A DNA stretch of 64,000 nt from Escherichia coli (GCF_013315695.1 NZ_CP054353.1), one strand, 5' to 3'; numbered from the stretch's first letter, positions 3,524 through 28,619 are shown. Numbers and translations are program-made. Notes: a model not told the origin generated them from the letters alone.

Positions 3524-3928
3524 ATGAAAACGGTCATCACCTTCGGCACCTTCGATGTGTTTCATGTCGGTCATCTGCGCCTTTTACAACGCGCCCGCAC
3601 GCTGGGCGAACGGCTGCTGGTCGGCGTATCGTCCGACGCCTTAAATATCGCCAAAAAGGGCAGAGCACCGGTTTACCCTCAGGATGACCGCATGTCGATC
3701 ATCGCCGGGCTGGCGTGCGTGGATGGCGTATTTCTGGAGGAATCGCTGGAGCAGAAAGCGGAGTATCTGCGGGGGTACCGTGCGGATATTTTAGTGATGG
3801 GCGATGACTGGGCAGGAAAGTTTGACAGCTTCGCGTATATTTGTGAGGTAGTGTATTTCCCCCGCACGCCGTCGGTGTCGACGACGGGGATTATTGAGGT
3901 GATTAGGGGTAAATCAGCCACCTACTGA
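3524..3928 (+). CDS. Cytidylyltransferase (glycerol-3-phosphate cytidylyltransferase TagD-like, nucleotidyltransferase superfamily)
   Basis: 134 aa; N-terminal FGTFDVFHVGH (HxGH) motif; ATG 2 nt after the lfiJ stop with GGAG upstream, so translationally coupled to the flagellar operon. Confidence 0.75.
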   Translation: MKTVITFGTFDVFHVGHLRLLQRARTLGERLLVGVSSDALNIAKKGRAPVYPQDDRMSIIAGLACVDGVFLEESLEQKAEYLRGYRADILVMGDDWAGKFDSFAYICEVVYFPRTPSVSTTGIIEVIRGKSATY

Positions 3929-3976
3929 TTTAATTCCCGCAGTGAGAGAAGATGATGCCGTTTGGCTATGTTAAAT

Positions 3977-4079
3977 ATGTTTAAAAAATCGCGTTTTTTC
4001 GACATATCCCCAAAACATGTCGATGGCATAAACGTATTCCAACGACATGTTTAAAAATCGCATTTTATCGACATATCCC
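3977..4079. repeat. Two ~34-bp direct repeats (ATGTTTAAAAA-TCGACATATCCC) in the convergent intergenic region
   Basis: Copies at 3977-4010 and 4047-4079, each with an internal ACATGTCGA/TCGACAT inverted motif; the second overlaps the glycosyltransferase stop. Confidence 0.4.
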
Positions 4080-6521
4080 TGACGATTCCTTGCCCGCCAA
4101 CGCCTCCACAATCACCATCGTCGCCCGTTCTCCCGCCTTGCCATCCATAAACGCATCGCAATAGTGATGACGAATCTTCGTAAGCCGCGCCTGCACCGCC
4201 CCCCAGTCAAACGCCTCTGACAACAAGTAACGCAACTCTGCCATATCATGAGCCACCGGCAATATTTCGCGGATTTGCTGATCGGCGCTCTCCGGCGTGG
4301 AGTAGCTTTTCTCGCCGTCGAGCAATTCACTCATGCCCGGAAAGTCGAGCAGGATCACCCGCTTATCAACGTGGATAGCATCGAAAATAAAGCCGCTGTT
4401 ATCGGTCAGCACGTAATCGGCCTTTGCCAGCAGCGCCAGCGTGTGACGGGCGGAGTCGGTGCGCTGTTTTAAATGCCTGCGAGCCAGGGCCAGCGATGCA
4501 GCTTCTTCCGGGCGCGAGCAGGTGCCGTGGTGCAGTTTGCAAATCAGGTTCACATCATCGCTTAAGCGCCCCAATTTTTCTGCCCAGTGGGGCAGGGAGC
4601 TTAATGCGCCAAACGTTGGGGCGTAGAGTACGGTGGGTTTACGCTCGTCCAGTTTGATATTTTCCGGCAACGCGCGGTCGAACGTGGCGTTATGCCAGGC
4701 GTCGAAGCGCGGGTTGCCGACCACTATTGCGTTGCTGAGGTGCGCCAGCGCCTGCTGGCTGTAGTGGCTGTAACACAAAATGCGCTGATAAAAACGGTTC
4801 CAGTCGGCGTGGTTCCACGTTTCTTTGGCTAAGCCGTACATGGCGCGAATGTTCAGGGGGGAAAGGCCACTGAGCGCAGGCGTGTGATAGGGGCTGACCA
4901 GGCATTTTACTCGCTGACCGTGTGCCTGCATTTCTGACAGACGCATACCTTTAAGCTGCGGATCGTCGATGTTTTTCAGTGTTTCCAGCATCTCATCCAG
5001 AAACGGTTTAAACACGCGGTCATTGATCACCAGTGTGCAGCTCTGCCCCTGCGCCTGCAGGGCGGTGATGATTGGGCGGTAGAGCGCGTAGTGGAATGAG
5101 GTTTCCATAAAAAAGCCGATGGTATCGGCGATAGGTAATGTAGATGGCTTGGTGGCTACGGGTAACTTATTGAAGTAGTGGTTAATGTTATCAGTCGCTT
5201 TTTTCTCGATATCACTAAAGCCCGGTCGCTGATAACAAAGGCTCGGGTAACAGGCCAGCCATTTGTCGGTGCGCAGCAGCGGCTGCCAGCCGTCTTCCAG
5301 CGAATGCTCATCGTTGTTCATCTGCTGCGCCAGCTGCGGGTAGTAGCGGCGGTTCACCAGATAAGCGCACACTTTGCGGCAGTCCCGCGCGTGCACCAGC
5401 CCAGGCAAACTTTTTAGCATCGTTCCCTGCGAAATTTCGCCGCCGAGGATCATCACCTGCCAGGGAATTTTCGCCAGGCTCGCCAGCAGCGCGTTCAGCA
5501 CCTGAATATGTTTCTCCTGTTTGAGAATAACCGCGTCATCTTCCAGCAGCAGGTAGTTTTGCCAGCCGCGTTGTTGCGCCAGACGCAGTGCCTGCAAGTG
5601 TGATTGCTGGCGGCCCCGTTGACCGTTTTCATTTTCACTGGCGGCAAGGCGGGTGATCTTCTCAGGAGGAATATGCAGCAATGTGAGTTCTTCACGGATC
5701 TGCTGTAAGCGATCCGGGCGTTTATCCAGATTCAGCAGAACGATCTGATCGATCGCCTGATGATGAGTGGCGTTATGCAGACTCAGATAAGCATTGCGGA
5801 GCAGCGGATCGCGGACGATATCCGTAAGCGTCGCGTTTACTGGCGTGCTGGCCCCGAGAATAAAGTCTTTATCAAAGGTGTTGTGGCTGTGCGAGATACA
5901 CAAAATCGTGCGCTCGCCGGGCAGTTGTAGCGGGTTAACGCTGAAATTGTCGGTGAAACTTTTCTCTTCGCCTAAATTGCAATCGTCATCGTAGCGGTGC
6001 TTTTTCAGGTAGTTACGGTGATAGCAAAAGGTGCCGTTGAGGATGTTATGCGGGCCGAAGCTGCGGCTTTGAAAGATGCGATTGATGTGGCTGTACCAGA
6101 TGGGGATCTGGTCGGAACCGGAGATGAGCGCCCGGTTTTTTTGCATCATAGCGATGGTGTAAGAGATTTTATCTGCCGGGTAGTAGTCGTCATCGTCCAT
6201 GCAGAGGATGTATTCGCCGCGCGCCAGTTCGTTGAGCATATTGCGTTTTTTGCCCAGCGGCAGTTTTTCCGGGTGATGGATGTAGCGGATGTTGAAGGCT
6301 TCCGGTGTGCCATTGGTCAGGCGGTCGATGATGTGTTGATGGCTTTGCGGGGAATCGTCGAGGATGATGAGTTCGCGGCGGTCTGCCGGGTAGTCCTGAT
6401 AGCGGTACATATAAAGCAGGTACGGCAGGAATGCGCTGCGGTTCCAGGTTGGCGTGACGACGCTGACGGACGGTTTTTCGCGCTGGGTGGCGAGTGTTTT
6501 GATAATGGTTGGTGTTGGCAT
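4065..6521 (-). CDS. Large multidomain glycosyltransferase (GT-A family 2-like + GT25-like + CDP-glycerol glycerophosphotransferase-like domains)
   Basis: N-terminal VSVVTPTWNR and CMDDDDYY (DxD) GT-A motifs; central LLNLDKRPDR GT25-like motif; C-terminal TagB/TagF-like region. The ORF track begins at a GTG (6593) inside a repeat, so ATG at 6521 is preferred. Confidence 0.75.
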   Translation of the reverse strand: MPTPTIIKTLATQREKPSVSVVTPTWNRSAFLPYLLYMYRYQDYPADRRELIILDDSPQSHQHIIDRLTNGTPEAFNIRYIHHPEKLPLGKKRNMLNELARGEYILCMDDDDYYPADKISYTIAMMQKNRALISGSDQIPIWYSHINRIFQSRSFGPHNILNGTFCYHRNYLKKHRYDDDCNLGEEKSFTDNFSVNPLQLPGERTILCISHSHNTFDKDFILGASTPVNATLTDIVRDPLLRNAYLSLHNATHHQAIDQIVLLNLDKRPDRLQQIREELTLLHIPPEKITRLAASENENGQRGRQQSHLQALRLAQQRGWQNYLLLEDDAVILKQEKHIQVLNALLASLAKIPWQVMILGGEISQGTMLKSLPGLVHARDCRKVCAYLVNRRYYPQLAQQMNNDEHSLEDGWQPLLRTDKWLACYPSLCYQRPGFSDIEKKATDNINHYFNKLPVATKPSTLPIADTIGFFMETSFHYALYRPIITALQAQGQSCTLVINDRVFKPFLDEMLETLKNIDDPQLKGMRLSEMQAHGQRVKCLVSPYHTPALSGLSPLNIRAMYGLAKETWNHADWNRFYQRILCYSHYSQQALAHLSNAIVVGNPRFDAWHNATFDRALPENIKLDERKPTVLYAPTFGALSSLPHWAEKLGRLSDDVNLICKLHHGTCSRPEEAASLALARRHLKQRTDSARHTLALLAKADYVLTDNSGFIFDAIHVDKRVILLDFPGMSELLDGEKSYSTPESADQQIREILPVAHDMAELRYLLSEAFDWGAVQARLTKIRHHYCDAFMDGKAGERATMVIVEALAGKESSGICR

Positions 6522-6570
6522 GGTGTTTGGGTGAGTTAATGGGTGAATGTGATGAATGTGCGTGCTGATG

Positions 6571-6680
6571 CCCTCACCCCGACCCTCTCCCACAGGGAGA
6601 GGGAGAAAACCAGCGCCGATTTTAACACCGTGCTCGATCGGTTCCCTCGCCCCTTTGGGGAGAGGGTTAGGGGGAGGGGA
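6571..6680. repeat. GC-rich double palindromic intergenic element
   Basis: CCCTCTCCC-ACA-GGGAGAGGG (6583-6603) and CCCTCGCCCC-TTT-GGGGAGAGGG (6644-6666), flanked by CCCTCACCCC and GGGGGAGGGG. Confidence 0.45.
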
Positions 6681-6699: not shown

Positions 6700-7629
6700 T
6701 CACGTCAGCAGCGAAAATGCTGACAGCAGCGGCTCTGCCGCACATAACGACTGGAGCTGCTGGCGAATCGCCGCAGCATTTTCACTCTCTCGCCAGCGTT
6801 CAAACACCGCAAAAAGGGCGAAAATATCCTCCTTCCGCAGCGGTGAACCATCCAGCGTCCATAAACTGATTAACGTGCGGATGAGATAAAAATCACACAC
6901 CAGCGGGCAATAATCTGCTCCGTCTGCCTGCCCAATCACGTCGTGATAAACGCGGTAAATCAGCCAGTTGCGCATCATCCACGGCGCGGCGGCAAAATGC
7001 TGTTGCCAGGTGGTTTGCCACTGCACCTTAAGCTGCTGTTGCAACAAAGCTTCGCTGTTGGCGTCATGCAACGTCAGCAAAGTCACCTGCAACGGTAGCG
7101 AGGCTTTGCGCGGGCTTTCCGGCAAAATCGACCAGTCAAACGCAAAACTCCCGAGCAGCGTCACCAGTTGGCGCGCCAGTTGTGGCACGGGTGGGAGTTG
7201 GGCGAACTGTGCCTGTAGCGTGCCTTTTTGTGCATGATCCCCCAGCGCCTGTGGCAGCGTCGTCAAGCGGGCAAGAATATCTCCGTCTCTGCCCGGCATT
7301 TTACTGGCGCGGGAGAGCAAAATCCCGACGGCATACAGGGAAAGCTCCGGGGTTAAATCGGGGAGCGTAAGGGTGCTCAAAATGGCCTGGTTTACTATCG
7401 CATCGCGCGCGGATAGCTCGGCGGCATTGTCTTCCACAGGGCGGTAGGTGAGCTGTAAATCAAAGGCCCTGGCATCGTTGAGCACCGCTTTGCAACTTTC
7501 AATATCGGTCAATGCCAGGCTCTGGCGAATCTCATTCTTCCAGACCTTGCGGACGTACAAAGGCGAATCGGGATATTGCGTCATAAAATTGCGCACGTAT
7601 TCCGGTTCGTAACATTCAATAAAACTCAT
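6700..7629 (-). CDS. Hypothetical protein (unknown function) downstream of the flgN-like gene
   Basis: ORF track 6700..7668 begins with TTG; internal ATG (MSFIECYEP) at 7629 with a GGAAG-like SD is preferred; no recognisable motif. Confidence 0.45.
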   Translation of the reverse strand: MSFIECYEPEYVRNFMTQYPDSPLYVRKVWKNEIRQSLALTDIESCKAVLNDARAFDLQLTYRPVEDNAAELSARDAIVNQAILSTLTLPDLTPELSLYAVGILLSRASKMPGRDGDILARLTTLPQALGDHAQKGTLQAQFAQLPPVPQLARQLVTLLGSFAFDWSILPESPRKASLPLQVTLLTLHDANSEALLQQQLKVQWQTTWQQHFAAAPWMMRNWLIYRVYHDVIGQADGADYCPLVCDFYLIRTLISLWTLDGSPLRKEDIFALFAVFERWRESENAAAIRQQLQSLCAAEPLLSAFSLLT

Positions 7630-7756
7630 AGGTGGCTTCCAGTCTTTATTACTTTGCGGAATGTGCAATAAGCGTGCCGGGAATTTTTGTAATCAAAAAC
7701 AAGGGATTGAGAATCAGGCGGAAAATCCGTTTCCGCGATGGGGGAAGGAATTGTCG

Positions 7757-9345: not shown

Positions 9346-9711
9346 ATGCGGATTGAAGCAGGAGTGACGCAGAGAATGGGGATCAGTTTTCAACAAGCAT
9401 TGGGAGTGCATCCGCAGGCAGTGAAGTTACGTCTTGAGAGGACCGAGCTACTGACTGCGAATCTGGCGAACGTCGATACGCCAAATTTCAAGGCTAAAGA
9501 TATTGATTTTGCCAGGGAGATGCAACGGGCAAATAACGCGGCGGTGGATGTCCAGTACCGCGTGCCGATGCAGCCGTCAGAAGATGGCAACACCGTGGAA
9601 CTGAACAGCGAACAGGCACGGTTTTCACAAAATAGTATGGATTATCAAAGCTGTCTGACCTTTCTGAATCTGCAAATCAGCGGCATCAGAGAGGCCATTG
9701 AAGGGAAATAA
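9346..9711 (+). CDS. lfgB: Flagellar proximal rod protein FlgB family (LfgB)
   Basis: Conserved ANLANVDTPNFKAKDIDF and C-terminal DGNTVELN rod motifs; start uncertain (9346 or 9376). Confidence 0.8.
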   Translation: MRIEAGVTQRMGISFQQALGVHPQAVKLRLERTELLTANLANVDTPNFKAKDIDFAREMQRANNAAVDVQYRVPMQPSEDGNTVELNSEQARFSQNSMDYQSCLTFLNLQISGIREAIEGK

Positions 9712-9713
9712 GC

Positions 9714-10145
9714 ATGTCATTTACTGATATCTATCAGATTTCCGGCTCGGCGATGACGGCGCAAACGCTACGTCTGAATACCGTCGCCAGTAACCTGGCG
9801 AATGCTAATGCACCTGCCAGCAGCGAGGCGCAGGCGTATAAAGCGCGCAGCCCGGTGTTTGCGACGGTGTATCACCACAGCTTGCTGGTGGGTACACATC
9901 GTCATGCCATTGATGGTGCCAGCGTGCAGGTGCAGGACGTGCTGCAAACCGGCGGGGCGGTGAAACGCTATGAACCGCATTCGCCGCTGGCGGATGCTAA
10001 CGGGGATGTCTGGTATCCCGACGTCAACGTGGTGGAACAGATGGCGGACATGATGTCGGCCTCGCGCGATTTTGAAACCAATGTCGATGTGCTCAACAAC
10101 GTGAAAAGTATGCAGCAAAGCCTGCTGAAACTGGGAGAAGCCTGA
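9714..10145 (+). CDS. lfgC: Flagellar rod protein FlgC family (LfgC)
   Basis: 143 aa; SNLANANAP N-terminal motif and C-terminal PLADANG...MVDMMSASR motifs; appears full length. Confidence 0.85.
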   Translation: MSFTDIYQISGSAMTAQTLRLNTVASNLANANAPASSEAQAYKARSPVFATVYHHSLLVGTHRHAIDGASVQVQDVLQTGGAVKRYEPHSPLADANGDVWYPDVNVVEQMADMMSASRDFETNVDVLNNVKSMQQSLLKLGEA

Positions 10146-11017: not shown

Positions 11018-12220
11018 ATGAGTTATGAAATTGCCGCAACGGGGTTGAATGCCGTTAACGAACAACTGGACGGGATCAGTAACAACATCGCCAACGCCGG
11101 AACGGTAGGCTATAAGTCGATGACCACCCAGTTTTCAGCCATGTATGCCGGAAGTCAGGCGATGGGCGTCAGCATGGCAGGCACCGCGCAAAGTATTTCG
11201 CGCGGCGGTTCGCTGGTATCCACCGGTAACGCGCTGGATCTGGCGATTAACGACGACGGCTTTTTTGTTACCTGCGACAGCGCGGGCAACATTTCTTATA
11301 CCCGCGCCGGATCGTTTGAAACCGACAAAAACGGCTATATCGTCAACGCCTCAGGCGCTTATTTGCAGGGCTATCCGGTCGATGACACGGGCACTCTGCA
11401 AACCGGTACAGTCACCGATATCCAGATCAAAACTGGCAATATTCCGGCGCAGGCCAGCAGCAGCCTGACCTTTACCGCCAACTTCGATGCCAGCGACGAC
11501 GCTATCGACCGCACTACCGTACCGTTCGACGCGACCAACAGCAGCTCGTATACCGACAGCTACACCACCACGGTGTACGACTCATTAGGTAACGAACACT
11601 CGGTATGCCAGTACTTCACCAAAACCAGCGACAACACCTGGGAAGTGCAGTACACCTTCGACGGTCAGCAGCAGACCGGCGTTCCGGCGACGACGTTAAC
11701 CTTCGACCCGAACACCGGAAAACTGACCTCGCCAACTACGCCGCAGACCATTGAGTTTCAGACCGACGCCGCCGCGCCCATCGATTTAACCGTCGATTAC
11801 TCCACCTGTACGCAATACGGTTCTGAATTTTCTGTCACCACCAACGCCGCCGACGGCTACGCCTCCGCGACTCAGAACGGTGTGCAGGTCGATGACGATG
11901 GCAAAGTTTACGCCACCTACAGCAACGGCGAGCGCATGTTGCAGGGCCAGGTGGTGCTGGCGACTTTCCCGAATGAAAACGGCCTGGAGGCAGTGAGCGG
12001 CACCGCGTGGGTACAAACCGGGGAATCCGGCACCCCGCTGATTGGCGTTCCCGGCTCCGGCACCTGCGGTACGCTGTCGTCCGGCGTGCTCGAAAGCTCT
12101 AACGTCGATATCACCAGCGAGTTAGTCAACCTGATGACCGCCCAGCGTAACTATCAGGCCAACACCAAAGTTATCGCTACCAGCACGCAGCTCGATGACG
12201 CGCTGTTCCAGGCAATGTAA
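11018..12220 (+). CDS. lfgE: Flagellar hook protein FlgE family (LfgE)
   Basis: 400 aa; conserved N-terminal (GISNNIANAGTVGYK) and C-terminal (SNVDITSELVNLMTAQRNYQAN) rod/hook motifs. Confidence 0.9.
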   Translation: MSYEIAATGLNAVNEQLDGISNNIANAGTVGYKSMTTQFSAMYAGSQAMGVSMAGTAQSISRGGSLVSTGNALDLAINDDGFFVTCDSAGNISYTRAGSFETDKNGYIVNASGAYLQGYPVDDTGTLQTGTVTDIQIKTGNIPAQASSSLTFTANFDASDDAIDRTTVPFDATNSSSYTDSYTTTVYDSLGNEHSVCQYFTKTSDNTWEVQYTFDGQQQTGVPATTLTFDPNTGKLTSPTTPQTIEFQTDAAAPIDLTVDYSTCTQYGSEFSVTTNAADGYASATQNGVQVDDDGKVYATYSNGERMLQGQVVLATFPNENGLEAVSGTAWVQTGESGTPLIGVPGSGTCGTLSSGVLESSNVDITSELVNLMTAQRNYQANTKVIATSTQLDDALFQAM

Positions 12221-12957
12221 TGGATCGCCTGATTTATACCGCCCTGAGCGGGGCTTCTCAGACGTTGTACGAGCAGCAAATTAGCGCCAACAACCTGGCG
12301 AACGTCAACACCAACGGTTTTCGCGCCGATATGGCGATGGCGACCAACGACAAGGTGAAAGGCGGCGGCTTCGACACGCGCTATATGGCGCAGGAAGGGG
12401 CCAGCGGCGTGAACGACAGCACAGGTGTGGCGGAGAAAACAGAACGCCCGCTGGACGTGGCGATTCAGGGCGCGGGTTACATTGCGGTGCAGGATAAAAA
12501 CGGCAACGAAGTCTATACCCGCAACGGCAACATTCAGCAGGACGACCAGGGGCAACTGACCATCGACGGCAATCTGGTGCTGGGGGATAACGGGCCGATT
12601 ATTCTGCCGCCGAACGCCATCGCCTCGTTTGGCAGCGACGGCACGCTGTCGGTGACGCCCGATGACGGCGACGTGACCGCGACGATGGATATCGACCGCC
12701 TGAAGCTGGTGGATATTCCGGTCGCTAACCTGGCGAAAAATCCTGAAGGGATGCTGATAACTGCCGACGGCGTTCCGGCCCAGCGCGATGAAAACATCAA
12801 AGTCAGCGGCGGTTTTCTCGAAGGCAGCAACGTCTCGGCGGTGAGCGAAATGATGTCGTCCATCGCCATGAATCGCCAGTTTGAAGCGCAGATCAAGATG
12901 ATGAAAACCGCCGAAGATATCAGCGACGCGGGCAACCGCTTATTGCGCGGCTCGTAA
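12220..12957 (+). CDS. lfgF: Flagellar rod protein FlgF family (LfgF)
   Basis: 245 aa with rod-protein N- and C-terminal motifs; ATGA-type overlap with the flgE-like gene. Confidence 0.85.
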   Translation: MDRLIYTALSGASQTLYEQQISANNLANVNTNGFRADMAMATNDKVKGGGFDTRYMAQEGASGVNDSTGVAEKTERPLDVAIQGAGYIAVQDKNGNEVYTRNGNIQQDDQGQLTIDGNLVLGDNGPIILPPNAIASFGSDGTLSVTPDDGDVTATMDIDRLKLVDIPVANLAKNPEGMLITADGVPAQRDENIKVSGGFLEGSNVSAVSEMMSSIAMNRQFEAQIKMMKTAEDISDAGNRLLRGS

Positions 12958-12964
12958 CCGCACA

Positions 12965-13003
12965 TCGTAGGCCGGATAAGGCGTTCACGCCGCATCCGGC
13001 AAC
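12965..13003. repeat. REP element
   Basis: GTAGGCCGGATAAGGCGTTCACGCCGCATCCGGCA unit between the flgF-like and flgG-like genes. Confidence 0.7.
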
Positions 13004-13035
13004 TGCGGCCCAAAAATAACACGGAATTTACCACC

Positions 13036-13821
13036 ATGAACGCAGCGCTATGGATCAGCAAAACCGGCCTCTCGGCGCAGGATGCTGAAATGAGCGCGAT
13101 TGCCAACAACATCGCCAACGTTAACACCACCGGCTTCAAGCGTGACCGGGTGATGTTTCAGGATCTGTTCTACCAGACCCAGGAAGCGCCGGGCGCGATG
13201 CTCGACCAGAACAACATCATGCCGACCGGGCTGCAATTCGGTAGCGGCGTGCGCATTGTCGGCACCCAAAAAACCTTCACCGAAGGCAACGTCGAAACCA
13301 CCGACAACGCCATGAATGTCGCCATCATGGGACAGGGATTTTTGCAGGTGCAAAAGGCTAACGGCGATATCGCCTATACCCGCGATGGCAACTTGCAGGT
13401 GAACGCCGACGGCGTGTTGACTAACTCGCAGGGTTTGCCGTTACAACCGGAAATCGACGTTCCGGCGGGGGCGACTAACGTTGCGTTTGGTGAGGACGGC
13501 ACGGTGACGGCGATCTTACCCGGCGACAGCGATGTGACCGAGTTAGGGCAACTGACACTGGTGAACTTCGCTAACCCGGCGGGGCTTTCCGCCGAGGGCG
13601 ACAACCTGTATCTGGAAACCGCTGCCAGCGGTCAGCCGACCGAAGGCGTACCGGGCGAAGATGGGCTTGGCACCTTGCAGGACAACGCGCTCGAAGGCTC
13701 GAACGTGGATATCGTCAACGAGATGGTGGCGATGATTACGGTGCAACGGGCGTACGAGATGAACGCCAAAATGGTGTCGGCTGCGGACGATATGTTGCAG
13801 TACATCAGTCAGACGCTGTAA
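13036..13821 (+). CDS. lfgG: Flagellar distal rod protein FlgG family (LfgG)
   Basis: 261 aa; rod motifs ANNIANVNTTGFK and GSNVDIVNEMVAMITVQRAYEMN. Confidence 0.9.
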   Translation: MNAALWISKTGLSAQDAEMSAIANNIANVNTTGFKRDRVMFQDLFYQTQEAPGAMLDQNNIMPTGLQFGSGVRIVGTQKTFTEGNVETTDNAMNVAIMGQGFLQVQKANGDIAYTRDGNLQVNADGVLTNSQGLPLQPEIDVPAGATNVAFGEDGTVTAILPGDSDVTELGQLTLVNFANPAGLSAEGDNLYLETAASGQPTEGVPGEDGLGTLQDNALEGSNVDIVNEMVAMITVQRAYEMNAKMVSAADDMLQYISQTL

Positions 13822-13822
13822 G

Positions 13823-13866
13823 GCCGAAATGTCGGATGCGACGCTGACACGTCTTATCCGACCTAC
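13823..13866. repeat. REP element
   Basis: GCCGAAATGTCGGATGCGACGCTGACACGTCTTATCCGACCTAC palindromic unit; the ORF-track N-terminus of the next gene reads through it. Confidence 0.7.
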
Positions 13867-13903: not shown

Positions 13904-14569
13904 GTGAAAAATTATCTCTGGCTGGTGGCGCTGCTTCCCCTGCTTAGCGGGTGTGAATCGCAGGCCATTCTGGTCAAAAAAGACGACGCATACTTTGCGC
14001 CACCGAAAACCGAAGCACCGCCTCCGGCAGACGGGCGTGCCGGGGGCGTGTTTGAAACCGGCTACAACTGGTCGCTAACTGCCGACCGGCGGGCTTACCG
14101 CGTGGGCGATATCCTGACGGTGATCCTCGAAGAATCCACCCAGTCGAGCAAACAGGCGAAAACCAACTTCGGCAAAAGCAACACCGTCGATATCGGCGCA
14201 CCGACCATTTTTGGTCACACCAAAGATAAGCTTTCCGGCTCCATCGATGCCAACCGCGACTTTGACGGCAGCGCCACTTCCCAGCAGCAGAACAGCCTGC
14301 GCGGGGAGATCACGGTTTCCGTCCATGCGGTGCAGCCCAACGGCATCCTGGAAATTCGCGGCGAGAAATGGCTCACCCTCAACCAGGGCGATGAGTACAT
14401 CCGTTTAAGCGGTCTGGTGCGCGCCGACGATATCCAGAACGACAACTCGGTTTCCTCCCAGCGGATCGCCGATGCCCGCATCTCCTATGCCGGACGCGGC
14501 GCGTTAAGCGACGCCAACGCCGCAGGCTGGCTGACGCGGCTGTTTAACCATCCTCTGTTCCCGATTTAA
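13904..14569 (+). CDS. lfgH: Flagellar L-ring lipoprotein FlgH family (LfgH)
   Basis: GTG start at 13904 gives a lipoprotein signal peptide with lipobox LLSGC; the ORF-track start at 13829 lies inside a REP element. Confidence 0.85.
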
Positions 14570-15684
14570 TGCCGGAGAGTGCAATGCAAAACTGGATAAA
14601 GGCCGCAGTTATCGCCCTAAGCCTGGCGCTGCCCGGCGTGGCGCTGGCGCAATCGCTGGAGTCGCTGGTCAACGTACAAGGCGTGCGTGAAAACCAACTG
14701 GTCGGCTACAGCCTGGTGGTCGGCCTCGACGGTACTGGCGATAAAAACCAGGTCAAATTCACCAACCAGACCATCACCAATATGCTGCGCCAGTTTGGCG
14801 TGCAATTGCCGAATAAAATCGACCCGAAGGTGAAAAATGTCGCGGCGGTGGCAGTGAGCGCCACGCTGCCACCGATGTACTCACGCGGGCAGACTATTGA
14901 TGTCACCGTCTCGTCGATTGGTGATGCCAAAAGTATTCGTGGCGGCACCTTGCTGCTGACCCAACTGCACGGCGCAGATGGCGAGGTTTATGCCCTGGCA
15001 CAGGGCAGCGTGGTGGTGGGCGGGATGAACGCCACCGGGGCCAGCGGTTCCAGTGTGACGGTTAATACGCCAACTGCCGGGTTAATTCCCAACGGCGCGA
15101 CGGTGGAGCGCGAGATCCCCAGCGATTTTCAGATGGGCGACACCATCACGCTCAACCTGAAACGCCCGTCGTTTAAAGACGCCAACAACATTGCGGCGGC
15201 GATCAACGCCTCGTTTGGCGGCATTGCCACGGCGCAGAGTTCCACCAACGTCACCGTGCGTGCGCCCACCAGCCCCGGCGCGCGGGTGGCATTTATGTCG
15301 CAACTGGATGATGTACAGGTGCAGGCAGAGAAAATCCGCGCCCGCGTGGTGTTTAACTCGCGTACCGGCACGGTGGTGATGGGCGATGGCGTTGCGCTGC
15401 ATGCGGCGGCGGTGTCGCACGGCAGTTTGACCGTCTCGATTAACGAAACCAGCAACGTCAGCCAGCCGAATGCCTTTGCAGGCGGGCGCACGGCGGTAAC
15501 GCCGCAGAGCAATATCGCGGTGAATCATGCGCGCCCGGGCGTGGTGAGTTTGCCGGAGTCGAGCAGCCTGAAAACGCTGGTCAATGCGTTGAACAGTTTG
15601 GGCGCGACGCCGGACGACATTATGTCGATTTTACAGGCGCTGCATGAGGCGGGCGCGCTGGATGCCGACCTGGAGGTGATCTGA
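14569..15684 (+). CDS. lfgI: Flagellar P-ring protein FlgI family (LfgI)
   Basis: 371 aa with signal peptide (alternative start MQNWIK at 14584). Confidence 0.9.
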
Positions 15685-15983
15685 TGAAAGTGAACGCCAG
15701 CGGCGGGATTGATGGCAGCGATGCGTTAATGGGGCCGAAGGTTCAGGCCAATGATATTAAGCAGGCCGCGGAGCAGTTTGAGGCGATTTTTTTACGCAAC
15801 ATGCTGAAAGAGATGCGTAAAACCAACGAGTTGTTCGATTCGAAAGATAACCCGTTTAACAGCGATTCGGTGCGCATGATGCAGGGGTTTTATGACGATG
15901 AGTTGTGTAACACCCTGGCGCAGCAGCACGGGATTGGGATTGCGGCGATGATTGTGAAGCAGTTGTCGCCGAAGCATAAATGA
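15684..15983 (+). CDS. lfgJ: FlgJ-like rod-binding protein, single domain (no muramidase domain)
   Basis: 99 aa; matches only the N-terminal rod-binding region of FlgJ; the ORF stops before any glucosaminidase domain. Confidence 0.65.
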   Translation: MKVNASGGIDGSDALMGPKVQANDIKQAAEQFEAIFLRNMLKEMRKTNELFDSKDNPFNSDSVRMMQGFYDDELCNTLAQQHGIGIAAMIVKQLSPKHK

Positions 15984-15999
15984 GGCTCCGACGTTCGGT

Positions 16000-16335
<336 letters not shown>

Positions 16336-16403
16336 TACGGAACTTAAGAATCCCCATCTTCACGCCGCTTTTAACCGGCACGATTTACCGGTAAGGATCC
16401 AAC

Positions 16404-17780
16404 ATGGACATGATTAACATCGGCTACAGCGGCGCATCAACCGCGCAGGTAGAGCTGAACGTCACGGCGCAAAACACCGCCAACGCCATGACCACGGGCT
16501 ACACCCGTCAGGTGGCGGAGATCAGCACCATCGGCGCCAGCGGTGGTTCGCCGAACAGCGCCGGTAACGGCGTGCAGGTCGACAGTATTCGCCGCGTCTC
16601 CAACCAGTATCAGGTGAATCAGGTGTGGTATGCCGCCAGCGATTACGGCTATTACAGCACCCAGCAGGGGTATCTCACGCAACTGGAAGCGGTACTGAGC
16701 GACGATAACAGCAGCCTGAGCGGCGGCTTCGATAACTTCTTCGCCGCCCTCAACGAAGCGACCACCAGCCCTGATGATTCCGCCCTGCGCGAGCAGGTGA
16801 TCAGCGAAGCCGGGGCGCTGTCGTTGCGTATCGACAACACGCTGGATTACATCGACTCGCAAAGCACGGAAATCATCAGCCAGCAGCAGGCGATGGTCTC
16901 GCAAATCAACACGCTCACCAGCGGTATCGCCAGCTATAACCAGCAAATCGCTCAGGCCGAAGCCAACGGCGATAACGCCTCCGCGCTGTACGACGCCCGC
17001 GATCAGATGGTGGAAGAACTGAGCGGAATGATGGATGTGCAGGTCAATATTGACGACCAGGGCAACTACAACGTCACCCTGCAAAACGGTCAGCCGCTGG
17101 TGAGCGGGCAGCAAAGCTCAACCATCGCGCTGGAAACCAACGCCGATGGTACAGCAAGCATGACGCTGACCTTCGCTGGCACCACCTCGACCATGACCAC
17201 CGACACTGGCGGTTCGTTAGGCGCTCTGTTCGACTATCAAAACGACGTGCTGACGCCGCTGACCGACACCATCAACAGCATGGCGTCGCAGTTCGCCGAT
17301 GCGGTCAACAACCAGCTGGCGCAGGGCTACGATCTCAACGGTAACCCCGGCGAGCCGCTGTTTATTTACGATGCCAGCAATGCCGATGGCCCGCTGACCG
17401 TTAACCCGGATATCACCGCCGATGAGCTGGCGTTCTCCAGTTCGCCGGATGAAAGCGGCAACAGCGACAACCTCCAGGCGCTGATCAATATTTCCACCGA
17501 ACCGCTGGAGATAGCCAACCTCGGCAGCGTGACGGTCGGGCAGGCGTGCTCGTCAATCATCAGCAATATCGGCATTTACAGTCAGCAAAATCAGACGGAA
17601 GTCGATGCCGCGTCCAATGTCTATTCCGAAGCTCAAAACCAGCAGAGTAGCGTCAGCGGCGTCAGCATGGACGAAGAAGCGGTGAACCTGATCACCTATC
17701 AACAAATTTATGAAGCTAATCTGAAAGTCATTTCCGCCGGGGCCGAGATTTTCGATTCGGTGCTGGAAATGTGCAGCTAA
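16404..17780 (+). CDS. lfgK: Hook-associated protein 1, FlgK family (LfgK)
   Basis: 458 aa with conserved N-terminal and C-terminal (EAVNLITYQQIYEANLKVI) HAP1 motifs. Confidence 0.85.
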   Translation: MDMINIGYSGASTAQVELNVTAQNTANAMTTGYTRQVAEISTIGASGGSPNSAGNGVQVDSIRRVSNQYQVNQVWYAASDYGYYSTQQGYLTQLEAVLSDDNSSLSGGFDNFFAALNEATTSPDDSALREQVISEAGALSLRIDNTLDYIDSQSTEIISQQQAMVSQINTLTSGIASYNQQIAQAEANGDNASALYDARDQMVEELSGMMDVQVNIDDQGNYNVTLQNGQPLVSGQQSSTIALETNADGTASMTLTFAGTTSTMTTDTGGSLGALFDYQNDVLTPLTDTINSMASQFADAVNNQLAQGYDLNGNPGEPLFIYDASNADGPLTVNPDITADELAFSSSPDESGNSDNLQALINISTEPLEIANLGSVTVGQACSSIISNIGIYSQQNQTEVDAASNVYSEAQNQQSSVSGVSMDEEAVNLITYQQIYEANLKVISAGAEIFDSVLEMCS

Positions 17781-18740: not shown

Positions 18741-19718
18741 ATGCAGGTCGGACTTACATCTTCATCACTCGCCACCGGCGGCGCGCATAGCGCTGCGGTA
18801 TCGTCGTCAACCGTTGCGCCCACTCAGGCGGTGCGGCAAACGCTCCCGGCGACGGCGAGTGAATATCCGGCCTCGCCGCTGATTACCACTCGCCCGCAGC
18901 GTTACAGCGTACAGCTTAACGACCAGCTCACCACGTTGCAGCAGGCGGATCACTATCTCGGGCAACTGGAGCAGCAGTTGCTCGATTATCGTCATAGCCA
19001 GCGTAAAGGCGGGCAGGCGCAGAGTTCGGCGCTGATGCAGATGCTGGACAAACGCGCCGCACTTTCCGGCGGCGCGGTGGACCGCCAGTTACAACCAGTG
19101 TTGCAGGGGGAAGCGCGGGTGACTTTTCACTCGCCGGATCTGACGAATCTGGTACACAATCCCACGCCGGGAACGCGCATGTTCAGTGTCACTGGCGGGC
19201 GGCAGACCCAGCTTTCGGCGGTGATGCTGTCTGAGGATGACAGCGCCGCGCAGTATCAGACGCGGCTGACCAACGCTCTGCGCCGCGTGGGTGTGCAACT
19301 GCATCAGCAAGCGGACGGCATCAGCTTCTCCACCACTGAAAAACAGTGGCCCCATATCGAGCGCACCTTAAGCGTGCGCACCGATGGCGATAAGTCGGCG
19401 TTTATGCCGCTGAAAACCTTTGCCGAACCGTCACAGGCGGACCGCTTAGCGCAAAGCCTGCAACAAGGCGGGGCGGGAATTTCTCAAATGCTGGAAAACA
19501 TTAATCAGCAGCGCGCGCAAATGGCGGTGCAGCAGGAAAAAGCGCGGCAGTTGATCGACGGCATGTCCCGCTTCCCGCAAACGGAAAGCGCCGTGCAGGC
19601 GTCGGAAAATCTCGGCGGCGTGCTGGATAGCGCCAATCATAACTATCAAGTTTTATTGCAGGCGGTGAACGGTCAGGCACGGATTTCCAGCCAGACGGTG
19701 AGGAGTTTATTGGGGTAG
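18741..19718 (+). CDS. Hypothetical Gln-rich protein in LafW position
   Basis: 325 aa, no recognisable motif; located between the flgL-like and regulator genes. Confidence 0.45.
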   Translation: MQVGLTSSSLATGGAHSAAVSSSTVAPTQAVRQTLPATASEYPASPLITTRPQRYSVQLNDQLTTLQQADHYLGQLEQQLLDYRHSQRKGGQAQSSALMQMLDKRAALSGGAVDRQLQPVLQGEARVTFHSPDLTNLVHNPTPGTRMFSVTGGRQTQLSAVMLSEDDSAAQYQTRLTNALRRVGVQLHQQADGISFSTTEKQWPHIERTLSVRTDGDKSAFMPLKTFAEPSQADRLAQSLQQGGAGISQMLENINQQRAQMAVQQEKARQLIDGMSRFPQTESAVQASENLGGVLDSANHNYQVLLQAVNGQARISSQTVRSLLG

Positions 19719-26829: not shown

Positions 26830-27693
26830 ATGCAAAAAATATTAGGTTTACTGGTGGTGCTCGGCTGCGTATTTGGCGGTTATTTTGAAGCGGGCGGCCA
26901 ATTAGTGGCTATCTGGCAGCCTGCAGAGATAGTTATTATTTTAGGTGCTGGTTTCGGGGCGATGATTATTGGGAACCCGAAACATGTGCTGAAAGAGATT
27001 GCCCATCAAATTAAAGGCGTGATCAGTAAAAAACAGCTCGGGCCGGAGTTTCAGCGCCAGCTATTAATGTGCCTGTATGAGTTGCTTGAAATGGTACAAA
27101 ACGGCGGTCTGCGGATGTTGGATCAGCATATTGAGCAGCCGGAAGAGAGTACCGTTTTCCAGAAATACCCGCTGGTGTTAACCCAGAAGCGGCTGGTGAC
27201 TTTTATTGCCGATAACTTTCGCCTGATGGCGATGGGTAAAATCGACGCCCATGAACTGGAAGGCATTCTCGATCAGGAGCTGGATACCGCCGAAGAGTCG
27301 CTGCTAACGCCGTCACGCTCGCTGCAACGGACCGCCGAAGCGATGCCGGGATTTGGTATTTGTGCAGCAGTGTTGGGCATCATCATTACCATGCAGTCGA
27401 TTGACGGCTCTATCGCCCTGATCGGCCTGAAAGTGGCGGCAGCGCTGGTGGGGACGTTTTTAGGCGTGTTTATCTGCTACTGCCTGATGGATCCGCTTGC
27501 CAACGCCATGGAACAACAGGCGCGGGCGGAACATTCGCTGCTGGAGTGTGTGCGTACCGTGCTGGTGGCCCAGGCGGGCGGCAAACCGACGCTGTTGGCG
27601 GTGGACGCCGGGCGTAAGTTGCTGCATCTGGCGTCCAAACCGACCTTCGCCAACCTCGACGCGTGGGTGAATGCGATGCTGGAGCAAGAATAA
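26830..27693 (+). CDS. lafT: Flagellar stator protein MotA family (LafT)
   Basis: 287 aa polytopic membrane protein with a MotA/TolQ/ExbB-type channel region. Confidence 0.85.
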   Translation: MQKILGLLVVLGCVFGGYFEAGGQLVAIWQPAEIVIILGAGFGAMIIGNPKHVLKEIAHQIKGVISKKQLGPEFQRQLLMCLYELLEMVQNGGLRMLDQHIEQPEESTVFQKYPLVLTQKRLVTFIADNFRLMAMGKIDAHELEGILDQELDTAEESLLTPSRSLQRTAEAMPGFGICAAVLGIIITMQSIDGSIALIGLKVAAALVGTFLGVFICYCLMDPLANAMEQQARAEHSLLECVRTVLVAQAGGKPTLLAVDAGRKLLHLASKPTFANLDAWVNAMLEQE

Positions 27694-27695
27694 GC

Positions 27696-28619
27696 ATGAG
27701 AAAGACGGGCAACCGCCGCGAGCGTGGGGCAAAAACCACCATCGTCCGGCGGCAGATCAAAAAGAATCATGCCGGGCATCATGGCGGGGCGTGGAAGGTG
27801 GCGTTCGCCGACTTTACCCTGGCGATGATGGCGCTATTTATGACGCTGTGGATTGTCAACAGCGTCAGTAAATCCGAGCGTGAAAGCATTATCGCCGCGC
27901 TGCACGGGCAGTCGATTTTTAATGGTGGAGGGCTGTCGCCGTTAAATAAAATCAGCCCGTCTCATCCGCCAAAACCTGCCACCGTGGCGGTGCCGGAAGA
28001 GACGGAGAAAAAAGCGCGTGACGTCAATGAGAAAACGGCGCTGCTGAAGAAGAAATCCGCTACTGAGCTTGGCGAGCTGGCGACCAGTATCAACACTATT
28101 GCCCGTGATGCACATATGGAAGCGAATCTGGAGATGGAGATTGTTCCCCAGGGACTGCGCGTGCTGATTAAAGATGACCAGAACCGCAATATGTTTGAAC
28201 GCGGCAGCGCACAGATTATGCCGTTCTTTAAAACTTTGCTGGTGGAGTTAGCGCCGGTTTTTGATTCGCTCGACAATAAGATCATCATCACCGGGCATAC
28301 CGATGCGATGGCCTACAAAAACAATATCTACAACAACTGGAACCTTTCGGGTGACCGCGCGCTTTCGGCTCGTCGGGTGCTGGAAGAGGCAGGAATGCCG
28401 GAAGATAAAGTGATGCAGGTGAGCGCAATGGCGGACCAGATGCTGCTGGATGCCAAAAATCCGCAAAGCGCGGGCAACCGGCGCATTGAGATTATGGTGC
28501 TGACTAAAAGCGCGTCCGATACGCTGTATCAATACTTTGGTCAGCATGGGGATAAAGTGGTGCAGCCGCTGGTGCAAAAGCTGGATAAGCAGCAGGTACT
28601 TTCACAGCGAACGCGCTAG
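27696..28619 (+). CDS. lafU: Flagellar stator protein MotB family (LafU)
   Basis: ATG at 27696 immediately after the lafT stop; N-terminal TM helix and C-terminal OmpA-like peptidoglycan-binding motif (NWNLSGDRALSARRV). Confidence 0.85.
   Translation: MRKTGNRRERGAKTTIVRRQIKKNHAGHHGGAWKVAFADFTLAMMALFMTLWIVNSVSKSERESIIAALHGQSIFNGGGLSPLNKISPSHPPKPATVAVPEETEKKARDVNEKTALLKKKSATELGELATSINTIARDAHMEANLEMEIVPQGLRVLIKDDQNRNMFERGSAQIMPFFKTLLVELAPVFDSLDNKIIITGHTDAMAYKNNIYNNWNLSGDRALSARRVLEEAGMPEDKVMQVSAMADQMLLDAKNPQSAGNRRIEIMVLTKSASDTLYQYFGQHGDKVVQPLVQKLDKQQVLSQRTR

Follow-up and report, generated by a model that had tools for sequence, protein, structure and literature searches.

The open reading frame at positions 15684–15983 of the window, by which we mean the whole 64,000-nucleotide (64-kb) stretch of Escherichia coli DNA that we analysed, is lfgJ of the E. 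coli Flag-2 (lateral flagellar) locus, and it encodes the N-terminal rod-binding part of FlgJ alone. In the flag-2 loci of four or more enterobacterial families, the short lfgJ is stably maintained under selection; it is no truncation peculiar to this strain. The reading that best explains the whole, and that we regard as probable, is that LfgJ is a scaffold only and that a separate exported enzyme opens the wall, with the NlpC/P60 protein YafL as the best candidate. What is new here is the linkage of yafL to flag-2, which is well supported; that YafL (b0227) is an unrecognised flag-2 component, the wall-opening enzyme that replaces the missing glucosaminidase domain of LfgJ, is a tentative proposal that falls somewhat short of likely.

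Between positions 14500 and 16500 the window is 99.9% identical to E. coli AF3, whose RefSeq annotation holds a complete Flag-2 locus that runs from lfhA to lafU, with dinB, yafNOP, pepD, gpt, proBA and the thrW island after it; all AF3 Flag-2 genes are annotated as intact, with no pseudogene flags. At least 80% of the same stretch, which covers flgI–lfgJ–flgK, is held by 1272 of 5426 complete E. coli genomes, in agreement with the 24% of Escherichia strains in which flag-2 has been reported (PMC6993521). The features of the window on which the argument draws are these:

6700–7668, minus strand: lafV, weakly similar to FliB, a flagellin lysine methylase (NCBIfam NF038110, E=6.5e-10, below cutoff)
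9346–10145, plus strand: lfgB and lfgC, proximal rod proteins and presumed substrates of the LfgJ cap (ORFs; RefSeq of the 99.9%-identical genome)
12220–13821, plus strand: lfgF and lfgG, rod proteins and presumed substrates of the LfgJ cap (ORFs; RefSeq)
14569–15684, plus strand: lfgI, P-ring protein (ORF, RefSeq and the conserved flgI–lfgJ–flgK order)
15684–15983, plus strand: lfgJ, single-domain FlgJ, rod-binding and putative rod-cap scaffold (ORF of 99 aa)
15968–16315, no strand assigned: three tandem REP/BIME units of ~117 nt in the lfgJ–lfgK gap (repeat family D1; Rfam RF02564)
16343–16375, plus strand: sigma-28-like promoter motif of lfgK, CTTAAGAA-N12-GCCGCTTTTAA (conserved motif, PWM)
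16404–17780, plus strand: lfgK, hook-filament junction protein, the next gene after lfgJ (ORF, RefSeq)
18741–19718, plus strand: lafW, flagellin/FlgL-like helical protein (predicted fold)
26830–28619, plus strand: lafT–lafU, stator genes (dinB follows lafU in this E. coli window)

The ATG of lfgJ shares 1 nt with the TGA of the upstream P-ring gene lfgI, implying translational coupling, and a Shine–Dalgarno sequence, GGAGGTG, is found 7 nt 5' of the ATG; RefSeq holds the identical gene as WP_000867179.1, ‘rod-binding protein’. A Pfam scan of LfgJ returned PF10135 (Rod-binding) as its sole match, over residues 42–93 and at 53.7 bits against a cutoff of 25.1, and no PF01832 (Glucosaminidase); with PF10135 above the gathering score and no catalytic domain, LfgJ is a single-domain FlgJ. 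K-12 FlgJ, by comparison, is a protein of 313 aa with Rod-binding at 50–97 and Glucosaminidase (PF01832) at 160–295 in Pfam. BLASTP aligned LfgJ 22–98 with K-12 FlgJ 30–102 at 34% identity, and this alignment ends at the onset of the FlgJ linker. Among the FlgJ family models, TIGR02541, the NCBIfam model of two-domain FlgJ, was matched at positions 20–91 of 294 only (68 bits; cutoff 193), and the top NCBIfam models for LfgJ were the short ‘PRK12708’ models, likewise under cutoff. An earlier note on this DNA had described the 99-aa product as the rod-binding domain alone, and these alignments agree with it; its statement that a C-terminal domain is missing also holds, although what the note called a muramidase is strictly a GH73 glucosaminidase (PF01832). 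An AF2 model of LfgJ consisted of a disordered N-terminus and helices at low confidence (pLDDT 54), too poor for a fold search, and a profile search of the PDB with LfgJ detected no relative by sequence. From homology, we infer that LfgJ is a rod cap or scaffold exported by the flagellar type III system.

The short form recurs throughout the relatives of LfgJ. Nearly all of the ~100 closest homologue clusters, which come from Escherichia, Citrobacter, Leclercia, Scandinavium, Dryocola, Pseudescherichia and relatives, are 90–134 aa long, the shorter ones being fragments; in an exhaustive profile search, short LfgJ forms of 103–132 aa (Buttiauxella at 132 and Tatumella at 124 among them) ranked before the first two-domain protein. 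The order flgI, lfgJ of 99–105 aa, flgK was kept in 25 of 25 enterobacterial loci, with an lfgJ–flgK gap of 75–100 bp outside Escherichia, and further single-domain LfgJ loci were present in Tatumella (124 aa), Buttiauxella (132 aa), Rouxiella (100 aa), Serratia sp. (131 aa) and one metagenomic contig (105 aa). Even the loci whose FlgI is only ~70% identical (Rouxiella, Serratia sp. and one metagenomic contig) carry rod-binding-only genes, of 100–131 aa. All flag-2 loci examined have flgI, an lfgJ of 99–132 aa and flgK, a scaffold-only lineage that spans Enterobacteriaceae, Erwiniaceae (Tatumella), Yersiniaceae (Rouxiella, Serratia sp.) and Budviciaceae (Leminorella). In comparisons with unsaturated synonymous sites, the only ones used, lfgJ had a dN/dS of 0.02–0.15 (Nei–Gojobori).

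These observations leave next to no room for the view that the short ORF is an artefact of sequencing error, frameshift or recent truncation of a two-domain gene, such as a REP insertion might cause. What could be read that way is the repeat array: the 420 bp 3' of the lfgJ stop are made up of three 117-nt REP/BIME units in tandem, of which two exceed the Rfam RF02564 gathering score (16073–16150 and 16191–16267), and the first unit covers the last 16 nt of the lfgJ ORF. However, E. whittamii has the same 99-aa LfgJ with only 86 bp to lfgK, less than one 117-nt unit, and LfgJ is 100–132 aa long in other genera; because the gap there is merely 75–100 bp, the REP/BIME units are no remnant of a lost domain, and we rejected a domain cut off by REP insertion. 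When 69 two-domain FlgJ proteins were compared with the 64-kb window by tblastn, every N-domain was placed at 15.5–16 kb, while the best C-domain match was no better than E=0.08, leaving no remnant of a glucosaminidase domain in the window. Conservation, dN/dS and the lack of a remnant together exclude a sequencing error or frameshift, and with it a longer ORF hidden by such an error, which had been held out as the finding that could overturn the single-domain reading.

The one two-domain lateral FlgJ that we found belongs to Plesiomonas shigelloides (FlgJ_L; 328 aa, Rod-binding and Glucosaminidase). The Plesiomonas lateral cluster is syntenic with Flag-2, its FlgI being 63% and its rod-binding domain 37% identical to those of the window, but FlgJ_L, unlike LfgJ, keeps the glucosaminidase domain. 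A scaffold-only FlgJ is therefore a lineage trait of flag-2, not a property of all lateral systems.

Primary FlgJ of E. coli and Salmonella has a homologous N-terminal rod-binding domain and is likewise encoded between the P-ring gene and flgK; LfgJ differs from it in having neither the linker nor the C-terminal GH73 glucosaminidase (FlgJ 160–295). The rod cap or scaffold function of Salmonella FlgJ is located in its N-terminal half, and is kept by the single-domain FlgJ of Rhodobacter sphaeroides (PMC7277832, PMC8517470). In the Fla1 system of R. sphaeroides, this FlgJ is accompanied by a separate Sec-exported enzyme, SltF, encoded with the flagellar genes (PMC7277832); in Borrelia burgdorferi, a single-domain FlgJ is accompanied by the separately encoded BB0259, which binds FlgJ (PMC8517470). 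Flag-2 resembles Fla1 in that FlgJ is reduced to a scaffold, and Borrelia in having a single-domain FlgJ. The enzymes set these systems apart: SltF, a soluble lytic transglycosylase encoded in the flgG operon, cleaves glycan strands, whereas flag-2 has no SLT gene, and the enzyme linked to it is an NlpC/P60 peptidase, found at the cluster border or after lafU and with a candidate role. BB0259 has an SLT domain and is required for hook passage of periplasmic flagella, in an organism and a flagellar architecture that differ from those considered here. Since single-domain FlgJ proteins with separate wall enzymes were already known, a scaffold-only LfgJ is ordinary in itself, a further member of this arrangement.

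Like these proteins, LfgJ would act as a rod cap or scaffold and would be unable to cut peptidoglycan itself, in which case the hole for the rod must come from a separately exported enzyme. The expectation in the earlier note that peptidoglycan penetration needs a separate hydrolase is supported in that LfgJ has no catalytic domain. The same note saw no such hydrolase in the window; indeed, we found no lytic transglycosylase and no muramidase or glucosaminidase in the window or in the remaining Flag-2 cluster of AF3, the closest genome. A peptidoglycan enzyme of a different class, the NlpC/P60 endopeptidase YafL, is encoded just outside the window, at the lfhA border of the cluster. Nor was there an SLT or glucosaminidase gene inside any flag-2 locus examined, in E. 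coli or in other genera. We considered LafW as a hidden hydrolase and rejected it: its sequence belongs to no family, and its predicted fold resembles the helical bundles of flagellin, FlgL and FliS, not lysozyme or SLT. LafV was rejected on its weak similarity to FliB methylase, of which it is the orthologue according to PMC6993521. Our scan of the thrW island and the remaining genes identified integrase, primase, P22 gp7/gp20-like, Ecp fimbrial and similar genes and no wall hydrolase. In 25 further flag-2 loci, the additional ORFs, which encode a DNA methylase, an EAL protein and, after lafZ, a 157–159-aa secreted protein without family, matched no hydrolase family.

The gene for YafL (249 aa, NlpC/P60) is situated ~10 kb before position 1 of the window, in the order yafL–rayT–lfhA in AF3, and K-12, with its lfhA'-'lafU deletion scar, has kept the yafL arrangement. 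In Tatumella, a 248-aa NlpC/P60 gene begins at the lafU stop codon; in Atlantibacter, the yafL homologue directly adjoins an lfhA'-'lafU deletion scar in different surroundings; and in Leminorella it is 7 kb from lfhA, with a toxin–antitoxin/Fic island between. Down to 49% identity, the named YafL homologues are confined to Escherichia/Shigella, Citrobacter, Metakosakonia, Kluyvera, Atlantibacter, Superficieibacter and Leminorella, genera that have flag-2 or its scar, the scar being only a possibility for Superficieibacter. Among the named matches there were none from Salmonella or Klebsiella, in which no flag-2 has been found (PMC6993521). One partial homologue sequence carries the label Pseudomonas. 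Contig sizes common to both searches (46183, 57736, 61851, 74860, 128358, 516458 and 647298) suggest that several YafL matches are on the same contigs as LfgJ/FlgI matches or an LfgJ locus.

A metagenome scan seeded with generic NlpC/P60 motifs yielded 79 loci, 8 of them closest to YafL and 71 closest to MepH. Flag-2 genes were present in seven of the eight YafL-type loci, the eighth being a 2.7-kb contig of marginal classification; flagellar genes were present in none of the 71 MepH-best loci, which include 15 close enterobacterial MepH orthologues. In one YafL-type locus (L097), yafL is 48 bp from lfhA; in a second (L100), lafT–lafU–yafL face lfhA–lfhB; and in two others (L101 and L118), yafL directly follows lafU. 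Counting Tatumella, yafL is directly 3' of lafU in four flag-2 loci and overlaps it in three; in L100 the overlap is 14 nt and in L118 it is 4 nt. The start–stop overlap in L100, L118 and Tatumella implies co-transcription. The outer flanking genes of yafL loci vary from one locus to another. At the lafU ends of the Rouxiella and Buttiauxella loci, the ends that were seen, yafL was absent. In physical linkage, yafL travels with flag-2 loci across genera, a conclusion for which the support is good; in the searchable papers that mention YafL, and in the flag-2 survey PMC6993521, we found no link of YafL to flagella.

The catalytic domain of YafL is PF00877 (NlpC/P60). Cys170 and His225 do not vary among 14 sequences, Glu237 hardly varies, and the N-termini are hydrophobic, with a signal peptide; a conserved N-terminal region specific to YafL contains SYAARQRMxNR and QHPEWF. 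Its closest E. coli paralogue is MepH (YdhO), annotated as a peptidoglycan endopeptidase / L,D-carboxypeptidase, whose NlpC/P60 catalytic domain is 52% identical to that of YafL. In contrast to MepH, YafL has its own N-terminal region and the flag-2 linkage; the 15 enterobacterial MepH loci are without flagellar neighbours. A profile comparison of YafL, including its N-domain, with LfgJ gave no sequence relation, a result that says nothing on binding. As a Sec-exported NlpC/P60 endopeptidase, YafL would be the best candidate for the missing wall-opening activity; any role of YafL in wall opening is one that we infer.

Outside flag-2 strains yafL persists: 5384 of 5426 E. coli genomes retain it, although only ~1272 carry Flag-2. 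Between K-12, from which Flag-2 is deleted, and AF3, yafL differs by 4 nonsynonymous and 45 synonymous changes (dN/dS 0.02), with 0 nonsynonymous changes on the K-12 branch; given this ratio, we rejected relaxed selection on yafL in the Flag-2-less lineage. The purifying selection on yafL in K-12 means that the gene is useful without Flag-2 or that the scar is young, and the fact that E. coli strains without Flag-2 retain it under such selection argues against a role in Flag-2 alone.

All loci inspected (18 sequences) have the sigma-28-like motif 5' of lfgK, and a PWM made from 15 of these 18 promoters scored 29.4 at lfgK, with lfgM as its sole other pick among the Flag-2 genes of the window. 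At yafL itself, a match of 12/16 to the sigma-28 consensus in E. coli did not stand up to the lfgK PWM, whose best score there was 4.9, with no match in K-12 or other genera. Upstream of detached yafL genes, we found no sigma-54 or LafS-type promoter. A presumed sigma-54 promoter before lafB would put the lafB–U operon in the class of the rod genes.

Besides the retention of yafL without Flag-2, the lack of such promoters at detached yafL genes and its absence from the lafU ends of Rouxiella and Buttiauxella, other observations speak against YafL as a dedicated partner. Co-transcription with the stator genes is compatible both with rod passage and with an anchoring of LafU to the wall, and the enzymes known to partner single-domain FlgJ cleave glycan and are not endopeptidases. 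In Plesiomonas, no NlpC/P60 gene is listed among the 37 lateral genes (PMC4481668); the complementarity between this and the two-domain FlgJ_L comes from one genus.

Other sources of the wall-opening activity have to be weighed against YafL. It is possible, although we think it doubtful, that LfgJ is a scaffold only and that host housekeeping lytic transglycosylases such as MltD or Slt70, recruited by LfgJ or the rod, open the wall; YafL would then be irrelevant or engaged in another flag-2 task. E. coli encodes several lytic transglycosylases, which counts for this explanation, as do the position of mltD ~14 kb beyond lfhA in AF3 and an SLT_2 gene 3.4 kb from yafL in Leminorella; SltF in R. 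sphaeroides and BB0259 in Borrelia are precedents (PMC7277832, PMC8517470). However, mltD belongs to the core genome and shows no visible linkage to flag-2, and the flag-2 loci examined contain no SLT or glucosaminidase gene, whereas Rhodobacter sltF is within the flagellar cluster; the sole peptidoglycan enzyme that travels with flag-2 is YafL. That primary FlgJ supplies the wall-cutting activity to Flag-2 is very unlikely. Primary flgJ, which carries PF01832, occurs in 5424 of 5426 complete E. coli genomes and hence in all Flag-2 strains too; but once exported, FlgJ works at the tip of its own rod and is therefore not expected to act at another basal body, and the N-domains of LfgJ and FlgJ share only 34% identity. 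Moreover, Tatumella ptyseos, Budvicia and Pragia have no flag-1, yet are motile with flag-2 (PMC6993521), and since the LfgJ of Tatumella is single-domain, dependence on primary FlgJ cannot be general.

A further alternative dispenses with a dedicated enzyme, either because the rod uses gaps left by wall turnover or because Flag-2 of E. coli is a silent relic; we consider this improbable. In its favour, Hirano et al. in 2001 reportedly saw weak motility in Salmonella FlgJ mutants without enzyme activity. Flag-2 of E. coli 042 is inactive, and the locus is deleted in most strains (PMC6993521). Set against this are the Flag-2 genes of the closest genome, all annotated as intact, the strong purifying selection on lfgJ, and the motility that Flag-2 drives in Plesiomonas and also, as PMC6993521 reports, in genera without flag-1.

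The reading that we favour, a scaffold-only LfgJ with a separate exported enzyme, is in its first half a textbook-compatible variation, already named rod-binding protein in RefSeq. It means that the two flagellar systems of a single E. coli cell solve wall penetration in different ways. For flag-2, the split solution is the rule throughout Enterobacterales, which sets it apart from most gamma-proteobacterial FlgJ proteins, described as two-domain. Should YafL prove to be the partner, a function would be assigned to an orphan K-12 gene, and K-12 yafL would be the leftover of a deleted Flag-2 locus. Flag-2 would then pass the peptidoglycan by cutting peptide cross-links, in the manner of MepH, and not glycan strands; to our knowledge, this would be the first case of a flagellum that crosses the wall with an endopeptidase.

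The intergenic gap between lfgJ, which encodes the single-domain FlgJ of the lateral-flagellar Flag-2 locus, and lfgK varies from 86 to 795 bp across Escherichia; in the window it is filled by repeats, and a promoter-like motif lies upstream of lfgK.

15968-16315: three tandem REP/BIME units of about 117 nt, occupying the lfgJ-lfgK gap
16343-16375, + strand: promoter-like motif yTTAAGAA-N12-GCCGCTTTTA, upstream of lfgK
about 8543, - strand: weaker copy of this motif, upstream of lfgM

The first REP/BIME unit covers the last 16 nt of lfgJ, and two of the three units match naRNA4 (Rfam RF02564) above the gathering threshold. REP-like sequence also occurs near 13829, where the initial part of the long flgH ORF includes the translation DATLTRLIRPT; in strain AF3, the closest E. 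coli genome, the REP transposase gene rayT lies at the Flag-2 border. The motif 5' of lfgK is strongly conserved in all flag-2 loci inspected (18 sequences), and we found no lfgK-type motif upstream of lafA when searching with the same matrix; the lfgK and lfgM copies are probably promoters for LafS, the lateral sigma-28. Matches to sigma-54-type promoters were located just upstream of two further genes, which would fit a dependence of both the rod and the lafB-U operons on LafK for their expression.

Upstream of lfgB (9346): TGGCACGGCAATTGCT
Upstream of lafB (22471): TGGCACGCCTTTTGCC

Two further regions of the window hold the following genes.

3524-6593: cytidylyltransferase-like gene and 842-aa glycosyltransferase / CDP-glycerol transferase-like gene
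18741-19718, + strand: lafW, with no sequence family

The two transferase-like genes lie in flag-2 variable region 1, between lfiJ and lafV, and suggest modification of the lateral flagellin. The predicted structure of LafW (pLDDT 71) has a disordered N-terminus followed by a helical bundle like those of flagellin, FlgL and FliS. LafW looks like a flag-2-specific extra secreted protein of axial or junction type; it shares 26% identity with a protein named Maf-5 in the lateral cluster of Plesiomonas. The flag-2 loci of Citrobacter, Phytobacter, Leminorella and Buttiauxella carry, downstream of lafZ, an ORF of 155-159 aa whose product has a signal peptide but belongs to no Pfam family; tblastn gave no match to it in the E. 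coli window.

L010 13749-14228, - strand: post-lafZ ORF
L017 13784-14263, - strand: post-lafZ ORF
L023 14441-14914, - strand: post-lafZ ORF
L086 13732-14199, - strand: post-lafZ ORF

The thrW island is a degraded mosaic prophage region, holding P22 gp7/gp20-like ejection-protein genes, a DUF927 primase, an integrase and two copies, spaced 3.5 kb apart, of an IS1-like ORF pattern (167-aa and 91-aa ORFs).

53641-54338: IS1-like pattern, copy 1
57144-57841: IS1-like pattern, copy 2

Beyond the window, the Flag-2 border holds yafL, an NlpC/P60 endopeptidase gene.

L003 28388-29137 and L179 2713-3462: yafL
L095 5512-6606, - strand: MltB-like SLT_2 lytic transglycosylase gene of Leminorella

The Leminorella transglycosylase gene, probably a housekeeping one, is close to the lfhA end of flag-2 and 3.4 kb away from the yafL homologue. 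Between AF3 and K-12, dS is 0.34 for yafL, 0.20 for dinB and 0.09 for the yafL neighbours dpaA and yafJ, while yafL dN/dS is only 0.02; alleles at the Flag-2 border are unusually old or recombined.
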